In this document: positions 7,437 through 58,390 of the stretch, in pieces
How the letters are laid out: each line of letters opens with the position of its first letter
Position numbering within the stretch: position 1 is the first letter of the stretch
Virus record (IMG/VR): IMGVR_UViG_3300033150_000473
Span: 10,999 to 74,998 of that record
Length of the DNA: 64,000 nucleotides
Reading direction: 5' to 3' (one strand)
Source: a virus
Notes under the pieces: model-generated
What the model was told of the DNA's origin: nothing
Database searches by the model: none
What the model saw: the letters and a program-made list of their open reading frames with translations, nothing else
Made by a program: the position numbers and the translations under genes

Positions 7437-7557
7437 TTTCGAATGACAAACAAATACGAGATATGGAAAACCTTGCCTCTCGGCAAAACACAAGGCAATG
7501 CCCCATTGGTGTTGGTAGGGCCGAAGGGTCTCGAAGGCTCCGGGGTGAAATAAGCAG

Positions 7558-8646
7558 ATGAAACGCTACGGCGATCTGTACGCCAAGATTTGGGACATGG
7601 AGAATATCCGCGAGGCACACCACAATGCACAGCGCGGCAAGAGGCATTACCGCGAAGTACAAATGGTAAACGCCAATGAGGAGAAATATCTATCACAAAT
7701 CCAGGCAATGTTGCGTGACAAGACATTCCACACTTCCGAATATGAGGTCTTCACCAAATCAGACAGTGGCAAAGAACGCGAGATTTCTAAACTGCCGTAC
7801 TTCCCAGACAGAATCGTGCACCACTGCGCCATGCAGGTACTTGAGCCAATCTGGATGAAGACACTCATTACCGATACTTATGCTGCACTGAAAGGACGGG
7901 GCATTCATAGGGGTGTCAAAAGGGTAAAGCTGGCATTGCGCGACAGAGAAAACACGCAGTATTGTCTCAAGTTTGATATACGCAAGTTCTATCCGTCCGT
8001 TGACCATGACGTCTTGAAGTCCATAATCCGCCGGAAGATCAAAGACCCAGGTGTATTGTGGCTCTTGGATGAAATCATAGACTCCGCTGATGGTATTCCA
8101 ATTGGGAATTATCTCAGCCAGTATTTTGGCAACTTGTACTTGGCGTATTTTGACCATTGGATGAAAGAAGAGAAGCGTTGCAGATACTACTTCCGCTATT
8201 GTGACGACATCGTAGTGTTGCATAGTAGCAAGAAGTTCCTGCATGGGCTGTTCAGAGAAGCACAAGAATATCTATCTACCAATCTGAAACTGTGCATCAA
8301 ATCCAACCATCAGATATTCCCAGTAGACAAGCGCGGTATTGATTTTCTTGGCTATCGGTTCTTCCATGACTACGTACTCCTGCGAAAGAATATTGCACAG
8401 AGATTTAAAGAAAAGGTGCGCCACATTCGACGCGAGTGGTGGAACATGCGGCCAAGCCAAGTCGTAAACAGCATCATGAGTTATTGGGGCTGGATGAGGC
8501 ACGGGAACTGTCTTAATCTTGCCAAGAGACATATTGACGGGGAAATCCAACGGATCATAGCAGAAACGTGTAAGGCAAGCGGAACGAGAAATCCATTAAG
8601 GAGACTTAAATGGCTCAAGGCGACACCTATCCAGAAACCACAGTAA
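7558..8646 (+). CDS. DGR reverse transcriptase
   Basis: DRIVHH, LKFDIRKFYPS, GIPIGNYLSQ (SQ signature of DGR RTs), YCDD, GIDFLGY; 362 aa; no maturase or endonuclease domain. Confidence 0.96.
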   Translation: MKRYGDLYAKIWDMENIREAHHNAQRGKRHYREVQMVNANEEKYLSQIQAMLRDKTFHTSEYEVFTKSDSGKEREISKLPYFPDRIVHHCAMQVLEPIWMKTLITDTYAALKGRGIHRGVKRVKLALRDRENTQYCLKFDIRKFYPSVDHDVLKSIIRRKIKDPGVLWLLDEIIDSADGIPIGNYLSQYFGNLYLAYFDHWMKEEKRCRYYFRYCDDIVVLHSSKKFLHGLFREAQEYLSTNLKLCIKSNHQIFPVDKRGIDFLGYRFFHDYVLLRKNIAQRFKEKVRHIRREWWNMRPSQVVNSIMSYWGWMRHGNCLNLAKRHIDGEIQRIIAETCKASGTRNPLRRLKWLKATPIQKPQ

Positions 8647-14764: not shown

Positions 14765-16210
14765 ATGGATCAAAGACAAATCGACGCGCTCAGCATGGCT
14801 ATTGCACAAGCGATAGGCCAGAAGGCTCCTGCTACGACTCCTAGCGGCTCGTGGATGCACGGGCCAGGCGGGCTGTTTGCAGGTACGGCCATCGACAAGC
14901 GGGTGCTGAGTCTACGCATTGCCCCACGGGGTATCTCTAGTGTGCTGCGGGCGTTTCCGTCCGCGTACACCAATCCTGAGTTTGGCTATCTGACGGGGAC
15001 CATTCAGTCAGCCGGACAAACTCAACCTAGCGACGAATGCTCCACCTGTGTCCACGGGGAAACGCAGTCCTGTGTGCAGACCGCGCAGTTTGGGCGAATC
15101 TGTGCCGAGACCAAGACCCTGACGATCCAGAGAGCAATCGAGCGCGTCAACCGCATGGACGTCGACTACACCCTGGTCAACGACCTGTTTGGTGAAGATT
15201 TTGCCAAGGACTTCTTCCGCGGCGTGCGGAAGATCGACAACAGCAAGGTCATGCAACTGTCAGTAGCCTGGGCCATGGTCGAAGTCGGAGTGCTCTTGCA
15301 GAACCTGGGCGTACCAATGGTCTGGCAGGGCAATCCAACCAATAGTGTCGGCACGGGCTACATGGAGTTTCCTGGACTGGACATCCTGATCGGTGTCAAC
15401 AAGGTCGATGCTCATACAGGGAACTCTTGCAACTCTCTGGACTCTGATGTCAAGGAGTTCAACTACGCCAGTGTCAATAGCGTCGATGCCGCAGGGAACT
15501 TCCACATCGTGCGCTACATGGAGGCTATGGAACACTACCTGTACCACAACGCCTCTCGGCAGGGTTTCTTGCCCGTTGAGAAGGTCATAGTTATGCGGCC
15601 TGAGTTGTGGCAGGAGTTCTCTATGATCTGGCCCACGGCATGGATGGCAACACGGAACATCGTGCTACCTGCCGGAAATACCAACTTCCTGGACGCAACT
15701 CGCATCAGGGAAATGGTGGCTGAGCTACAGCGCACTATGACGCTGGAACTGAACGGGCGTCGCTATCAGGTCATCCTGGACGATGGTGTCTTCGAGTATA
15801 CCAACGTCAACGACGCCAACGTTCCTGCTGGGTCTTATGCCAGCAACATCTACTTTGTCCCGACCCGCGTCATGGGGCAAAGGGACGTCTGTTTCTTCGA
15901 GCATCTGGACTACCGCGCAGGTCGCCAAGAAGCCGCAGACGCTAGGCTCCAGCAGACCTACTGGACGGACGATGGCAGGTTCTTGTGGACGCACGAGACC
16001 ACGAAGTTTTGTTTCACGGTCTCCGGCGAGATGAAGCCACGGGTCATCCTGCTGACGCCGCAACTGGCTGGCAGGATCAACCACGTGCTATACTCGCCGC
16101 TGCAACACCTGCGGAGCTACGACCAGGATTCGAGTTACTTCTTCAAGGGAGGCGAGTCAAGTCGTGGCGCTCCCTCGCTCTTCAGTGACTGGAACTTGCC
16201 GCGACAGTAA
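14765..16210 (+). CDS. major capsid protein
   Basis: 481 aa after protease/scaffold; AAGGAG RBS; VWQGNP...EFPGLD...IVMRP pattern of HK97-fold capsids. Confidence 0.8.
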   Translation: MDQRQIDALSMAIAQAIGQKAPATTPSGSWMHGPGGLFAGTAIDKRVLSLRIAPRGISSVLRAFPSAYTNPEFGYLTGTIQSAGQTQPSDECSTCVHGETQSCVQTAQFGRICAETKTLTIQRAIERVNRMDVDYTLVNDLFGEDFAKDFFRGVRKIDNSKVMQLSVAWAMVEVGVLLQNLGVPMVWQGNPTNSVGTGYMEFPGLDILIGVNKVDAHTGNSCNSLDSDVKEFNYASVNSVDAAGNFHIVRYMEAMEHYLYHNASRQGFLPVEKVIVMRPELWQEFSMIWPTAWMATRNIVLPAGNTNFLDATRIREMVAELQRTMTLELNGRRYQVILDDGVFEYTNVNDANVPAGSYASNIYFVPTRVMGQRDVCFFEHLDYRAGRQEAADARLQQTYWTDDGRFLWTHETTKFCFTVSGEMKPRVILLTPQLAGRINHVLYSPLQHLRSYDQDSSYFFKGGESSRGAPSLFSDWNLPRQ

Positions 16211-33147: not shown

Positions 33148-34729
33148 CGACGACGTTTTCTTGGGTCGTCTAACATACCTCCGCGAGGTCACCGCACAAC
33201 TGGTGCTCAGCGAAGCGGGCCAGTTCTCTGCCTCCGCGCCCTACGCCGAGTGGCGTGACCTCATGGAGATCGTGCCCAACTTCCAGCACGTGCGTCTTTA
33301 CGGCCCTGAAGAACTGATGCATGGCATCTGGTTGACGCGCGACGACGACACTGGTATTCCAGGGCATCTAGAGATGGGCGGCGTCGATCTCCTGGAAGAA
33401 CTCCGAGCACCTTGCCTGCCACCAGATTTCTACATTAGCCACTATCCTGCTACAGAGGCTATTGCTTGGTTGCTAGAGCAAAGCGGCACAGGCTGGGCAA
33501 TCGGTGACACAACACTAGCTGCCGTAGGCTATGTATCAGTCAACCTCGGCGGCGAGAGTTACCTGAGCGCCGTCTTGGAGATTGCCGAACTCTCTGGTAA
33601 CTATGTGCGGCACAACGGTATAGACAGAAGCTTGGATGTATTTGCTACGCCGTTCCCTGTGGTGGCTACGATCCTGGGCATGTTGCCTGACGACGAGGAA
33701 CTACCCGCGGCTACAGGAAGAATCGTCGGAGCACCGTCACTGACGATAGATACTGGTGAAGTATTGCGTGGTGTCTATCCTCAGGGTGGTAGTATCATAG
33801 ACACTGAGGGCAACGAGCAGGTATTACGGCCTACAGGTATAGAATCCCTGCCCGTAGGGTTTAGCTTCAATCGTGCGGGAGCTATTGTCAACAACTCTGT
33901 GACCAAGGGCTTGTGGCGGATTGCTGAGTATCCATTGATTGAACCGCTGAGTAATCGCACTGTTACAGCAGACGGCGAAGTCGAAGCTACTGGCAACAAC
34001 TTTATCACCTGCGAGGCATTACGACGCCCCAACAACAGCTTCTGGCTTGGGGGGATTCTAACTGTCGCTGATGTAGAATACAATGTCGTGTCTCATTCCG
34101 GTGCAACAGTCACGGGCGCTTGGGGTACTCAACCTATTGGTGCATCGTTCTCTGTGAAACGCGTCTTCGAGTACGATGCAGATGCTGAGAGCGAGGCGCG
34201 CCAAGACCTCGTAGATGCTGCGGTTGGGTTTATGAGCGCCAACAGCGAAGCATCACAACAACTCTCCGTCACTGTCGAGGGATTGGAAACTATACAGCCT
34301 GGTGATCAAGTGCGGCTAGAATGGATAGCAACAGCCGAGACACAAGACCTGATCACTGACGAACTGACACGTTACATCTTTGATGCCTTCCGCGGTGATT
34401 TGGTGGTCTGTTCCATCACTGTGTCGGTAAGTACAAAAACGGTGCATACTTTGGAGTTAGTCAAAGAGTTGCAGTTGATACCGACCGAAAGCGGTTTACG
34501 GGAGATACAAGCGTTAGCACAGATTTCAGGCCGTTACAACAGGGTGCTGAACGTCATGCCTGTGTCCCGCATGGACATCAACGCTGATGTGTTACGGTTG
34601 CGCCAGACCAAGACGCCACTTAGCGCAGGTGCAAGTGGTAGTCAGGGTGACATCTGTTGGGATGACAATTTTGTCTACATCGCAGTGGGTAACAACACTT
34701 GGAAGCGAGCCGCACTGGCAACTTGGTAA
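33122..34729 (+). CDS. baseplate hub / tail tip protein
   Basis: LSEAGQFS N-terminus; IQPGDQVRL; C-terminal GSQGDICWDDNFVYIAV..NTWKR trimer motif. Confidence 0.7.
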   Translation: MTIQVWDDNDDVFLGRLTYLREVTAQLVLSEAGQFSASAPYAEWRDLMEIVPNFQHVRLYGPEELMHGIWLTRDDDTGIPGHLEMGGVDLLEELRAPCLPPDFYISHYPATEAIAWLLEQSGTGWAIGDTTLAAVGYVSVNLGGESYLSAVLEIAELSGNYVRHNGIDRSLDVFATPFPVVATILGMLPDDEELPAATGRIVGAPSLTIDTGEVLRGVYPQGGSIIDTEGNEQVLRPTGIESLPVGFSFNRAGAIVNNSVTKGLWRIAEYPLIEPLSNRTVTADGEVEATGNNFITCEALRRPNNSFWLGGILTVADVEYNVVSHSGATVTGAWGTQPIGASFSVKRVFEYDADAESEARQDLVDAAVGFMSANSEASQQLSVTVEGLETIQPGDQVRLEWIATAETQDLITDELTRYIFDAFRGDLVVCSITVSVSTKTVHTLELVKELQLIPTESGLREIQALAQISGRYNRVLNVMPVSRMDINADVLRLRQTKTPLSAGASGSQGDICWDDNFVYIAVGNNTWKRAALATW

Positions 34730-42823: not shown

Positions 42824-42962
42824 GCCGTCTCCTTGACATAGAAAATCCCCACGGCAGTTGCGCACCATTGTGGTGTGGTAGGCAGGGCTGACCGTGGGGA
42901 TTGTCCACGTGTGTATTTTGGGATTGCAACACAAAACCCCGCTTCTACCACACCACGACTAC

Positions 42963-42991
42963 AGCATAGCATAGAATGCGTTTGTTGTCAA
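42963..42991 (-). promoter_or_regulatory. sigma70-type promoter of the GIY-YIG gene
   Basis: TTGACA-17 nt-TATGCT with TGn extension. Confidence 0.75.
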
Positions 42992-43650: not shown

Positions 43651-44277
43651 CTAGTCGCATGCGACCATCTCCCCGTCCACGAAACGGAAACGGTTGGCGG
43701 TGTCTTCTCGCCCGTACCACGCCTCCAATACACGCGGGTAGGTATCAGGGATGAGCAGACGACCAGCGCGGATGCCTCGCTTCTTGAGCAAATCATTCAC
43801 CCGATTCCATTCATTGTGGGTACAGATCCCTGCCGCGGTGCACGCGGCGCGGCTCATGCTTTTCTGCGCGTAGTATCTGCGCATGATGCGGCGTGCGACA
43901 GAGTCGAGGCGACTCGCATTCGGCTCTCTCCCCATGCGCACATCGGCGTGCGTTTCGTTTGCCCTCTCCCAATCAGAATCCTCGAAGATGCGCCTGCGCT
44001 GTAGCTCTGTCCGGCTCACGCCTTCGTCCCGCTCAATTGCCAGCATTCGGTAAAAGCCCAACCCGCCAGCCGCAGCCAGCGCCAGAACGGTGTCAACCAA
44101 CAAGAGCGTCCAGGGGGAGACATCCCAAATCGCGTAGACCGTGATTGAGAGAGAACCAGAGAGCAGTAGCATGAAACCGCCTGCGTATAGAGCTGACATG
44201 GCAAGATCCACGAGGCCCGTACCGTATATCGCGGGAGAATCAATCATCGCAACGTTAGCGGAAAGTTTCTGCCTCAT
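43651..44277 (-). CDS. membrane protein with basic C-terminal domain
   Basis: 208 aa, two TM segments; GAGGT RBS. Confidence 0.6.
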   Translation of the reverse strand: MRQKLSANVAMIDSPAIYGTGLVDLAMSALYAGGFMLLLSGSLSITVYAIWDVSPWTLLLVDTVLALAAAGGLGFYRMLAIERDEGVSRTELQRRRIFEDSDWERANETHADVRMGREPNASRLDSVARRIMRRYYAQKSMSRAACTAAGICTHNEWNRVNDLLKKRGIRAGRLLIPDTYPRVLEAWYGREDTANRFRFVDGEMVACD

Positions 44278-45016
44278 TGTTTACCTCTGAGAAGAGCGCT
44301 TGAAAGCCGACGCGATAGGCATCGAAGTCGCTACTGGCGTGGACTGTCATATGGCACGAACGATGCAGGCTTACCAGGTTTGCCATCGCGCTGTTTTGCT
44401 TGTCACCGTCAATATGATGCACATCAAGCGCTCGGCCATTCTGAGGTTCGCCACAGAGGATGCAGATGAACCCGTCACGCTCTCGGACTGCCTGTTTGAG
44501 TGCCTCGTCGAATTCTGGTGGGTAACACTTTTGCGAAGCGCCCTCGCGCCAGAAATTGCAGTTTTCCCCAGAATGCGCGGCCCGAAACTGCGGGTCTTGC
44601 CACCGGGCTTTCATCCTTTCGGATATTTTGCGCAGCCGTTCCCCATCATCAAAGTCGCCCCGCGCCCATGCTGCCCTTAGTTTTTCAGACATACGTCGGC
44701 GCAGTTCTGGTTCTGCCATTGCCTCGTAATATCGTTGGCGGTAGTCTGGATCTTGCCAGACAACCTTCATCCCCAACGATATTTTCTGCCGCCATTCCTC
44801 ACCGTAAACCCCGCGTTTGTAGGCAGCCTTTACTATCGCGGACATCTTCCCGCGCCATTCCTTGCCGTAACCCCCGCGTGAGCGACGTGCTTCCAATCCC
44901 GCAGAATGCTTGCGCTGCCATTCGGGATCTTGTGCCTGGGCCTCGCCTGCACAGCTTCTACACCGCTTACTCCTTTTATCTATCTTGGCTCCACAATCCA
45001 GACAGGTATTCGTCAT
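44255..45016 (-). CDS. HNH endonuclease with NUMOD3-like repeats
   Basis: RERDGFICILCG...DVHHIDGDKQN...NLVSL...CH; repeated KMS...WQDP units. Confidence 0.88.
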   Translation of the reverse strand: MTNTCLDCGAKIDKRSKRCRSCAGEAQAQDPEWQRKHSAGLEARRSRGGYGKEWRGKMSAIVKAAYKRGVYGEEWRQKISLGMKVVWQDPDYRQRYYEAMAEPELRRRMSEKLRAAWARGDFDDGERLRKISERMKARWQDPQFRAAHSGENCNFWREGASQKCYPPEFDEALKQAVRERDGFICILCGEPQNGRALDVHHIDGDKQNSAMANLVSLHRSCHMTVHASSDFDAYRVGFQALFSEVNNEAETFR

Positions 45017-56204: not shown

Positions 56205-56816
56205 TTAGACCTCCCCGTAGACAACCAGGTTACAGCCAACAGGCTCAGACCATTCTGGGATTGGGCCAAGGGTAAGCGTCAGCCCGTCGGCAGAATAGTT
56301 ATCCTTGTGATTGAAGGGTGGATTTAGCATTGCAATGAAGTAGGCCTCTAGGAGTATTGCGTCAGGCATTGAGTTCGTTTGGACGTACTTCACACTTATT
56401 GGCCGGTTATAGTTGCTAAAGCGCCCAAAACTTGATAGCATCCGTTGACCTAGACGGATACTGCGTCCGACATATAGTGGATCTCCGTCAACGTCCACAA
56501 AGCAGTAGACGCCGCAAACACCTCCTAAGTCTTCAAGCAACTCTATGAAGCCTGGTGTGAGCGTATGCGCGAATTTGAACTCCTCTATGTATTTAGTGCG
56601 TTGTGTTGCTAGCCACTTGAGCACATGTTTTTCTTCTAGGAGTTGTCCTCCGCGGGTTCGGAGTGCATAGGTATAATCGTCGGCCAACCCTGCGTTAAAG
56701 ATTTCTTTCTTATAGAACTGTCCTGATAACAACGCGTCAGTATCTATGCTTGGGCTTTCCCTGATTACCTTGTTGAGATAATTGAAGAAGTGTTTCTCGC
56801 CCTGTATGTAACCCAT
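56205..56816 (-). CDS. protein with C-terminal GIY-YIG (UvrC-like) nuclease domain
   Basis: GVYCF...LYVGRS..L..R...E...I...NPPFN. Confidence 0.85.
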   Translation of the reverse strand: MGYIQGEKHFFNYLNKVIRESPSIDTDALLSGQFYKKEIFNAGLADDYTYALRTRGGQLLEEKHVLKWLATQRTKYIEEFKFAHTLTPGFIELLEDLGGVCGVYCFVDVDGDPLYVGRSIRLGQRMLSSFGRFSNYNRPISVKYVQTNSMPDAILLEAYFIAMLNPPFNHKDNYSADGLTLTLGPIPEWSEPVGCNLVVYGEV

Positions 56817-56960
56817 GATACGTCATCTGCCTCCAAACAAAACGCCCCCACGACAGCAACTCAAGATCGGCATTGTGACGTGACGATGATGAGACACAGG
56901 TCGTGGGGGCGGTATGCGATTGGATTACTGTGTCTATCATCATGTCACGTCACGCTACCC

Positions 56961-56989
56961 ATCGTACCACAGAACTCCAAACTTTGCAA
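56961..56989 (-). promoter_or_regulatory. sigma70-type promoter
   Basis: TTGCAA-17 nt-TACGAT with TGTGG. Confidence 0.7.
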
Positions 56990-56990
56990 G

Positions 56991-57143
56991 TTAGCCTTCC
57001 AGCAGCCTGGCGCAGAGAGCGTCGATCTGTGCATCTTTGCGTGCCACTGTGTTGGTTATGGCCGCCGAGGCGCAACAGCCCATGACGATTGCGCTGAACG
57101 AAGCGGTAAGCGGGATGATGAGTAGTAGCCATAATGGGTTCAT
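56991..57143 (-). CDS. 50-aa single-TM protein (MNPLWLLLIIPL...)
   Basis: GGAGGT RBS; read manually. Confidence 0.6.
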   Translation of the reverse strand: MNPLWLLLIIPLTASFSAIVMGCCASAAITNTVARKDAQIDALCARLLEG

Positions 57144-58317: not shown

Positions 58318-58390
58318 AGGGTAGGGCAGGATTTGAACCTGCGTCAGTCTCGGGCCACATCCGAGCGCTCTGCCGCTGAGCTACCTACCC
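58318..58390 (-). tRNA. atypical tRNA, anticodon GTG (His)
   Basis: Full cloverleaf: GGGTAGG/CCTACCC, GCTC/GAGC, CTCGG-ATGTGGC-CCGAG, GCAGG-TTCAAAT-CCTGC. Confidence 0.85.

Follow-up and report, generated by a model that had tools for sequence, protein, structure and literature searches.

A promoter-proximal leader RNA predicted upstream of GIY-YIG nuclease genes in two related phages

The locus around 56.9 kb raises the question of what stands between a strong phage promoter and the GIY-YIG nuclease gene behind it, that is, whether the structured segment found there (leader 2) is an isolated feature or a member of an RNA family, and what such an RNA would do for the genes that follow. The window, a stretch of 64,000 nt, corresponds to bases 10999-74998 of the IMG/VR virus record IMGVR_UViG_3300033150_000473 (74,998 bp, hereafter G000), which has a terminal repeat of 114 bp and a G+C content of 54.7%. 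Leader 2 is flanked on the minus strand by a 50-codon hydrophobic ORF (57143-56991) and the 203-codon gene 2. The coordinates of all features are collected in table 1.

Each element of leader 2 whose position had been given in a first-pass annotation was recovered exactly there. The arms of the terminator stem, SL and SR, form a perfect GC-rich inverted repeat of 12 bp with 45 nt between them (duplex energy of -26.2 kcal/mol), and the tail that follows reads UUUUGUUU, then GGAGG and the start codon. Segment A and its complement A', for which about 24 bp of pairing had been proposed, do form 24 bp with two small bulges (-37.5 kcal/mol), an energy reached by 0-1 of 1000-2000 dinucleotide shuffles of the loop (p ~0.001). 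Only two sites of the 75-kb genome, at 56.9 and 42.9 kb, have a T-rich tail behind a GC-rich stem whose loop measures 20-70 nt, and the pattern CCCCACG..CGTGGGG also occurs twice (0 expected).

The -35 box of the leader 2 promoter is overlapped by a palindrome, AACTTGCCAAGTT, which is placed in the same manner at five G000 promoters and carries one mismatch at leader 2. A phage transcription regulator probably uses this palindrome as its operator. As read from the sequence, both upstream promoters would have to pass through the predicted terminator of leader 2 in order to reach the replication genes of the window.

Table 1. Coordinates of the two window leaders and their genes, and the plan common to the five distinct leaders (window positions unless otherwise given)
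Feature	Position or extent	Strand	Remark
Structural genes	up to ~41.6 kb of window	+	
DNA-metabolism and replication genes	rest of window	-	
Leader 2, promoter	56961..56992	-	extended -10 sigma-70 type, read from sequence
Leader 2, -35 box TTGCAA	56989-56984	-	17-bp spacer to -10
Leader 2, TG of extended -10	56969-56968	-	
Leader 2, -10 TACGAT	56966-56961	-	
Leader 2, palindrome-like AACTTGCAAAGTT over -35 box	56992-56980	-	
AACTTGCCAAGTT-type palindrome sites	window 56992-56980, 61728 region, 41573 region; genome 4781 and 5852		genome sites outside window
Leader 2, segment A, 5' strand of long helix	56928..56953	-	starts at ~+1 to +2 of predicted transcript
Leader 2, linker L1, single-stranded, A/U-rich	56912..56927	-	motif AATCCAATCGC; from alignment
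Leader 2, stem-left (SL) CGCCCCCACGAC, 5' arm of terminator stem	56900..56911	-	0 nt to A'
Leader 2, segment A', complement of A inside terminator loop	56875..56899	-	ends CAC, then AATG
Leader 2, linker L3, A' to stem-right	56855..56874	-	19-20 nt
Leader 2, stem-right (SR) GTCGTGGGGGCG	56843-56854	-	
Leader 2, U tract TTTTGTTT	56842-56835	-	directly after SR
Leader 2, Shine-Dalgarno GGAGG	56834-56830	-	
ATG of gene 2	56816-56814	-	
Gene 2, 203 aa	56205..56816	-	unknown N-domain and UvrC-like GIY-YIG
Leader 1, paralogous	42824..42991	-	same part order as leader 2
Leader 1, promoter TTGACA-17-TATGCT	42991-42963	-	
Leader 1, A	42956-42945	-	extended at 42942-42935
Leader 1, SL	42902-42892	-	
Leader 1, A'	42889-42870	-	
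Leader 1, SR	42854-42844	-	tail TTCTATGT
Leader 1, AAGGAG	42834-42829	-	
Gene 1, 250 aa	42071..42823	-	I-TevI-like GIY-YIG and NUMOD3, homing-type endonuclease
Gene 2 family members in context	window 56205-56816; L013 2506-3177		
Five leaders, start of A	+1 to +5 of predicted transcript		
Five leaders, A:A' helix	20-25 bp		six G.U pairs in total, small bulges
Five leaders, SL-to-A' spacer	0, 1, 0, 0, 2 nt		
Five leaders, A'-to-SR linker (L3)	11-24 nt		
Five leaders, terminator stem	10-12 bp		core CCCC(U)ACG
Five leaders, after SR	RBS and ATG within 4-24 nt		U tract comes first
Five leaders, predicted leader RNA length	about 120-145 nt		

The claim that the same architecture recurs at 42.9 kb with a different sequence also holds, with an identical order of parts and another helix sequence in leader 1. 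The short motifs that had been regarded as the only ones common to both leaders are all present, but they are not the only ones: an A/U-rich motif with AATCG, directly 5' of stem-left, is also common to both. The two downstream nucleases belong, as had been proposed, to different GIY-YIG subtypes. The product of gene 1 combines the GIY-YIG domain with five NUMOD3 motifs, and that of gene 2 is UvrC-like, with a profile match to PDB 1yd6 (E 1e-6) and a Pfam GIY-YIG domain in 6/6 members of its family. The stop codon of gene 2 is followed at once by the start codon of the replication initiator, and the genes for a DnaB-type helicase and a primase come next.

Three other elements of the window are recorded here. 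The phage encodes a tRNA-His (anticodon GTG, 58318-58390, minus strand) at a distance of 1.4 kb upstream of leader 2, within the early arm. A match to the Rfam RT-17 RNA (7469-7561, plus strand; 47.5 bits, above gathering) directly precedes a 362-codon ORF. At 45192-45020 (minus strand), a TTGACA-17-TAAAAT promoter leads into a nearly leaderless mRNA with a 46-codon ribbon-helix-helix-like ORF, directly upstream of the HNH endonuclease gene 44255-45016; this arrangement is a different way to head a nuclease gene within the same phage.

A search with the replication initiator retrieved one related phage from six metagenomes, with 69% identity to the window in the initiator and 82% in a neighboring ORF. 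The complete record of this uncultured phage, G002, is 116 kb long with terminal repeats. Its gene before the initiator is an I-TevI-like nuclease, 44-45% identical to gene 1, and not a homologue of gene 2, and the respective cassette comprises a TTGACA-17-TATAAT promoter and a leader with A, SL, A' and SR, the tail of which is nearly the same as that of leader 1. In total, G002 contains cassettes at 2732, 8241, 14090 and 34339, all located before I-TevI-like GIY-YIG genes. These are four more copies with three distinct sequences, the leaders at 2732 and 14090 being identical, and they bring the total to six copies and five distinct sequences (nhmmer E of 3e-27 to 3e-34; 105-144 bits with the covariance model R1). 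The distinct leaders are named W56 (56.9 kb) and W42 (42.9 kb) in the window, that is in G000, and G2_14090, G2_8241 and G2_34339 in G002.

The cassettes are mosaic. Behind the identical leaders at 2732 and 14090 stand nucleases that diverge beyond about residue 105. Two contigs of the G002 type (L026 and L027, 3100-3140) become identical midway through the promoter spacer and show no relationship before that point, which places a recombination breakpoint inside the cassette promoter. Together, these two observations indicate that promoter, leader and catalytic domain form one recombining module, independent of the DNA-binding tail. Between the G002 cassettes, the promoter is 87-95% identical and the nuclease domain 75-99%. 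For A and A', blastn gives no alignment between the cassettes at 34339 and 14090, and in the one at 8241 both segments differ greatly. The conservation of the flanks next to the divergence of A and A' suggests, at the level of sequence, selection on pairing rather than on the sequence itself.

The five distinct leaders follow a common plan (table 1). Their terminator loops range from 37 to 53 nt, and the motif with AATCG 5' of stem-left is common to the leaders, the version AATCCAATCGC of leader 2 being related to CCAATA..AATCGYRGAAT in the others. W56 has the 12-bp stem and the tail UUUUGUUU; the other four have stems of 10-11 bp and 4-5 U, and in three leaders the U tracts are short (UUCUAUGU, UUCUGUAUC). 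Four of the A:A' helices begin with GUG and end with CAC. In the five positions that follow GUG, 3-4 different Watson-Crick pairs are found at each position without a single mismatch in 20 cells, so that the covariation earlier proposed for the other paired bases is borne out on five sequences, which come from two phage lineages in the sequence searched. Taken one leader at a time, the shuffle p values of A:A' are 0.001, 0.008, 0.005, 0.055 and 0.009 (3.6e-7 when combined by Fisher's method); the helices were scored in this manner because neither MAFFT nor model R1 places the A segment of W56 correctly. The six G.U pairs make the RNA fold better on the sense strand.

As for the genes that carry the leader, 17 promoters of the same extended -10 type were found in G002. 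The leader is present at all four of those that precede this nuclease subfamily and at none of the other 13, which have plain leaders of 20-50 nt (Fisher 4e-4). Similarly, both GIY-YIG genes of G000 have it, against 0/7 other promoter-like sites of the same pattern. The leader is absent from three more divergent GIY-YIG genes of G002, and nhmmer and R1 gave no further copies at 75 other I-TevI-like loci of viral contigs, in G001 (a 98-kb phage) or in the contig L011, the last two of which are described below. The proposal that the leader travels with phage nuclease genes is therefore upheld in part: it describes the G002 subfamily (4/4 vs 0/13), but not G001, the 75 loci or the three divergent genes of G002.

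Broader searches added no member. Viral contigs scanned for CCCCACG..CACAATG..CGTGGGG had four chance matches lacking the architecture; viral contigs searched with gene 2, gene 1 and DnaB gave none or only distant matches; nothing useful was obtained from the cultured phages searched, and only unrelated GIY-YIG domains from the genome contigs. A scan of the window against Rfam 15 at gathering score reported only the tRNA and RT-17 and nothing at the leaders, and both window leaders and three G002 leaders, examined at E values up to 5-10, showed only sub-threshold noise. The suggestion of a new family thus agrees with the lack of any Rfam 15 family that matches the window or G002 leaders. No published description of such a leader was found in the literature searched, the nearest being a review of the T4 family (PMC2988022). 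We take the element to be a promoter-proximal leader RNA that acts in cis and represents a small family not catalogued to date; judged from sequence, this family is real and, in what was searched, confined to two related phages.

The gene 2 family, with about 200 aa, an unknown N-domain and a UvrC-like GIY-YIG domain, includes 68 clusters at E below 1e-30; in G000 as well as G001, its neighbors are a DnaB helicase and a winged-helix replication initiator. From its sequence context, gene 2 looks like a component of the replication module rather than a homing endonuclease. In G001, the gene 2 homologue (44% identity) starts right after the stop codon of primase, and no leader precedes it; therefore gene 2 belongs to a conserved module of nuclease, initiator and helicase in which the leader is not obligatory. 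The metagenome search for gene 2 loci gave at least two, one of which (L011, contig Ga0114919_10108580, 48% identity) includes upstream DNA. A perfect TTGACA-17-TATAAT promoter is followed there by a leader of ~130 nt, which ends in a 17-bp stem with a 27-nt loop and CUUUGUAUUU. Complementarity between its 5' segment and the loop gives no significant A:A' (p 0.16), and neither nhmmer nor model R1 detects homology to the window leaders.

Two further arrangements were noticed in these relatives. In L011 (605-700), an upstream ORF of 15 codons, which has the Shine-Dalgarno sequence GAGG, opens within the terminator loop and extends across the 3' arm and the U tract to a stop codon just short of the SD of the gene itself; read from the sequence, it may be a translation-coupled attenuator. 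In G001 (IMGVR_UViG_3300017971_000228, 15970-16085, plus strand), TTGACA-17-TACTAT is followed by a leader of ~65 nt with a canonical short-loop terminator and then by the RBS and ATG of a 491-codon ORF, which is another promoter-then-terminator unit.

In order to see which structures the leaders can adopt, nested folds were calculated with ViennaRNA, whose energies leave a pseudoknot outside the scoring. When the nascent RNA is cut just before SR, every leader folds as A:A' enclosing L1 and SL (-40 to -45 kcal/mol), and three of the five contain in addition a 5-bp hairpin between L1 (CGURG) and the 3' half of SL (CYACG). For the complete leaders, the energies of the A:A' fold and the terminator fold are -42.3 and -39.8 kcal/mol in W56, -39.3 and -43.8 in W42, -46.0 and -39.9 in G2_14090, -45.6 and -42.7 in G2_8241, and -38.8 and -44.0 in G2_34339. 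The two folds are thus near-isoenergetic, lying within 2.5-6 kcal/mol of each other with a sign that varies by copy; the leaders before the replication initiators (W56 and G2_14090) favor A:A'.

These structures only partly resemble the known classes. All five leaders have the GC-rich stem directly before a U tract on the transcribed strand that characterizes an intrinsic terminator, but their 37-53-nt loops far exceed the typical 3-8 nt, and a consensus terminator scan with loops of 3-8 nt did not report the leader sites. Similarly, A:A' forms first in the predicted folds, as the earlier helix of an attenuator does, but none of its bases belongs to SL or SR; the one overlap with SL is that of the small L1:SL hairpin. 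With their parts in the order A, SL, A', SR and 0-2 nt at the junction, the leaders have the arrangement of an H-type pseudoknot, and since A and A' use no base of the arms, the two helices could coexist in that form. We infer that their coexistence would be geometrically marginal, with 11-24 nt of L3 for a helix of 20-25 bp.

The reading that we prefer, and consider about as likely to be right as wrong, is that of a promoter-proximal attenuator which would dose the nuclease and the genes downstream, here the replication genes too. For the steps of initiation, termination, read-through and regulation that we infer from the sequence, host sigma-70 RNA polymerase would start 6-8 nt after the -10 box, and the first 20-28 transcribed bases (A) would zip with A' once it emerges, closing a domain that holds L1 and stem-left. 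Stem-right and the U tract, made next, would form with stem-left an intrinsic terminator, at which a fraction of the polymerases would stop and release an RNA of 120-145 nt, the two ends of which would be paired. The remaining polymerases would read through into the GIY-YIG gene and, at leader 2, also into the initiator, DnaB and primase. The likely purpose would be to keep a potentially harmful nuclease low in dose or timing despite a strong promoter. A:A' would turn most of the terminator loop into a rigid rod of 20-25 bp, which may either hinder closure of the terminator stem, acting as an antiterminator that tunes read-through, or stack with that stem as one long H-type pseudoknot. Precedent exists in the T4 family, where homing endonuclease genes are held down by RNA structure and terminators (PMC2988022). 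Several points weigh against the attenuator: the two folds are not forced to be exclusive, as no base of A or A' lies in the terminator arms; efficient intrinsic terminators rarely have loops of this length, and three leaders have only short U tracts; the covariation comes from five sequences of two phage lineages; and no ligand, protein or RNA that would flip the switch has been identified.

A strong promoter followed by a terminator fits equally a short RNA as the main product. The terminated RNA, folded as a coaxially stacked pseudoknot of 120-145 nt, may itself be functional and act on the nuclease or on another target, for instance as inhibitor, chaperone or cofactor of the GIY-YIG domain, with nuclease expression as a by-product of leaky termination. 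This is conceivable though rather unlikely. It would account for the 0-2 nt between SL and A' in all five leaders, a hallmark of stacked H-type pseudoknots, for the paired ends, which favor stability, and for promoters near consensus with an extended -10; the summed helices (about -33 to -37 plus -16 to -26 kcal/mol) would also beat either nested fold if sterically allowed. Moreover, the conserved L1 motif and the SL/SR core travel with the catalytic domain, and the DNA-binding tails are not correlated with the leader, as the identical leaders at 2732 and 14090 with their different nucleases indicate. It is weakened by the lack of any complementary target of at least 13 nt elsewhere in either genome, by the tight span that L3 would have to make along the helix and by the 56.9-kb leader, which precedes a different type of GIY-YIG. 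A more specific version, in which the terminator stem stacks on the helix of the triphosphate 5' end and the RNA would be the partner of the nuclease in a mobile RNA-nuclease cassette, is improbable from the sequence; its logic is that of HEARO RNA, which turned out to be the partner of IscB. Equally improbable is a 5' helix that, as in the early RNAs of phage T7 and the lambda N leader, serves as an RNase III processing site or a 5'-end stabilizer setting half-life or translation of the read-through transcript, with the terminator as an ordinary operon boundary. In all five leaders the helix, small bulges included, stays within 20-25 bp or some two helical turns, which is the size that RNase III needs, and it includes the very 5' nucleotides, the pairing of which protects against 5'-end-dependent decay as in the 5' hairpins of the ompA type. 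The start regions of the G002 leaders also form local hairpins (UUUUCUGUAUC with GAUGCAGAAAA) that leave the SD in the loop. However, neither the stem-left inside the helix loop, abutting A', nor the terminator after the promoter is explained by a processing site or stabilizer.

The succession of promoter, structured RNA, terminator and delayed genes mirrors PR-nutR-tR1-O-P and PR'-qut-tR' of lambda, where the parts stand in that order. A phage-encoded processive antiterminator, in the style of lambda N/Q or HK022 put, could accordingly open the gate, with A:A' as the recognition or polymerase-modifying RNA and with the nuclease and replication genes delayed until an early protein appears. The promoter of G001 with its short terminated leader is in line with such a gate, as is the palindromic operator-like motif that the 56.9-kb promoter has in common with four others. 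The Rfam scans gave no boxA/boxB-like or put-like match, though, no convincing -10-like pause element is found in the initial transcribed region, each copy has a helix sequence of its own, contrary to what sequence-specific recognition by a protein would suggest, and no antiterminator homologue was found among the minus-strand proteins scanned with Pfam and PHROGs; we regard this gate as quite improbable. The least credible reading, which we hold to be very improbable, is a DNA-level element, with hairpins or cruciforms as recognition sites of the nuclease, recombination sites or cassette ends. It has a precedent in the GIY-YIG protein Ssn (PMC11893778), and the breakpoint in the G002-type promoter spacer lies right beside the leader. 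Five features of the leaders tell against it, namely the fixed distance of A from a consensus promoter, the U tract on one strand only, the G.U pairs that favor the sense strand, the single copy per gene in place of dispersed repeats, and a helix sequence that does not track the DNA-binding tail.

Other candidates were rejected. A conserved leader peptide, started by the AUG of CACAAUG (16 codons in W56, in frame with gene 1 in W42), has no SD, and this AUG is absent in G2_14090 and opens only 3 codons in G2_34339. The pairing of the 5' segment with the translation start, which would make A an anti-RBS, is not above shuffles (p 0.12-0.68), and no trans-antisense target of at least 13 nt was found in the genome. 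It is unlikely that A/A' mimics the DNA target of the nuclease, given that an identical leader serves two nucleases with different tails. An RNA from the antisense strand is disfavored, as no T tract follows the stem on the plus strand and the G.U pairs become A.C mismatches.

Among the known systems, terminator/antiterminator attenuators and riboswitch platforms also set a promoter-proximal terminator against an earlier helix of near-equal energy. The antiterminator of known attenuators uses bases of a terminator arm, whereas here A' lies in the loop and exclusion would be only steric or topological; in addition, the leader has no conserved leader peptide, recognized aptamer or Rfam match. 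The CI RNA of P4, C4 of P1/P7 and the related RNA of N15 (RF01695) are likewise short leader RNAs of phage operons that include replication genes, with internal complementarity and controlled premature termination. On the other hand, the leaders have no cmscan match to RF01695 at E up to 10 and no second target site downstream, their complementary pair is intramolecular and different in each copy, and they accompany nuclease genes and not immunity. Lambda 6S RNA (PR'-tR') and StxS, of lambdoid late operons, resemble the leader in the strong constitutive promoter and the intrinsic terminator within about 120-200 nt, an order that yields an abundant short RNA as long as the polymerase is not modified; in the leader, no Q-binding element or pause signal was identified, nuclease and replication genes in place of late genes lie downstream, and the helix between the 5' end and the loop is without counterpart in those RNAs. 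In the case of Ssn, the GIY-YIG genes are flanked by hairpin-forming repeats of 20-50 nt that Ssn cuts (PMC11893778); unlike these SRM/NTS sequences, the leader is one element per gene with differing helices, two in the genome, upstream of two-domain nucleases.

The closest parallel is the regulation of homing endonuclease genes in the T4 family (I-TevI/II/III, segB, mobE and segF), which are restrained by autorepression, by RNA hairpins and, in mobE and segF, by intrinsic terminators that lower the amount of transcript (PMC2988022). Both cases have structured RNA at or upstream of selfish phage nuclease genes, with presumed low or late expression, and no sequence homology relates the T4 elements to the leader. 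The T4 hairpins sequester the RBS and have a late promoter inside the hairpin (PMC2988022), whereas in the leader the whole structure follows the promoter, with A starting at +1 to +5 and the RBS outside both helices. Around the translation start, local hairpins of the G002 leaders leave the SD in the loop or, in one leader, pair the start codon, and in the MFE fold of the W56 read-through RNA, UCCAA of L1 pairs with UUGGA of the SD region. The terminators of mobE, with a measured termination of about 30%, and of segF have 4-nt loops and are located inside the coding region (PMC2988022), in contrast with a loop of 37-53 nt that holds the complement of the RNA's own 5' end. The element also stands before the replication initiator in two related phages and therefore may set the timing of phage DNA replication. 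The restraint of homing endonucleases has been studied almost only in T4-like phages, and the leader would be a different solution, a strong host-type promoter and a terminator whose loop is clamped by the 5' end of the transcript, moving together with the catalytic domain; it provides a compact example, open to testing, of a pseudoknot-type topology that either controls a terminator or contains one.
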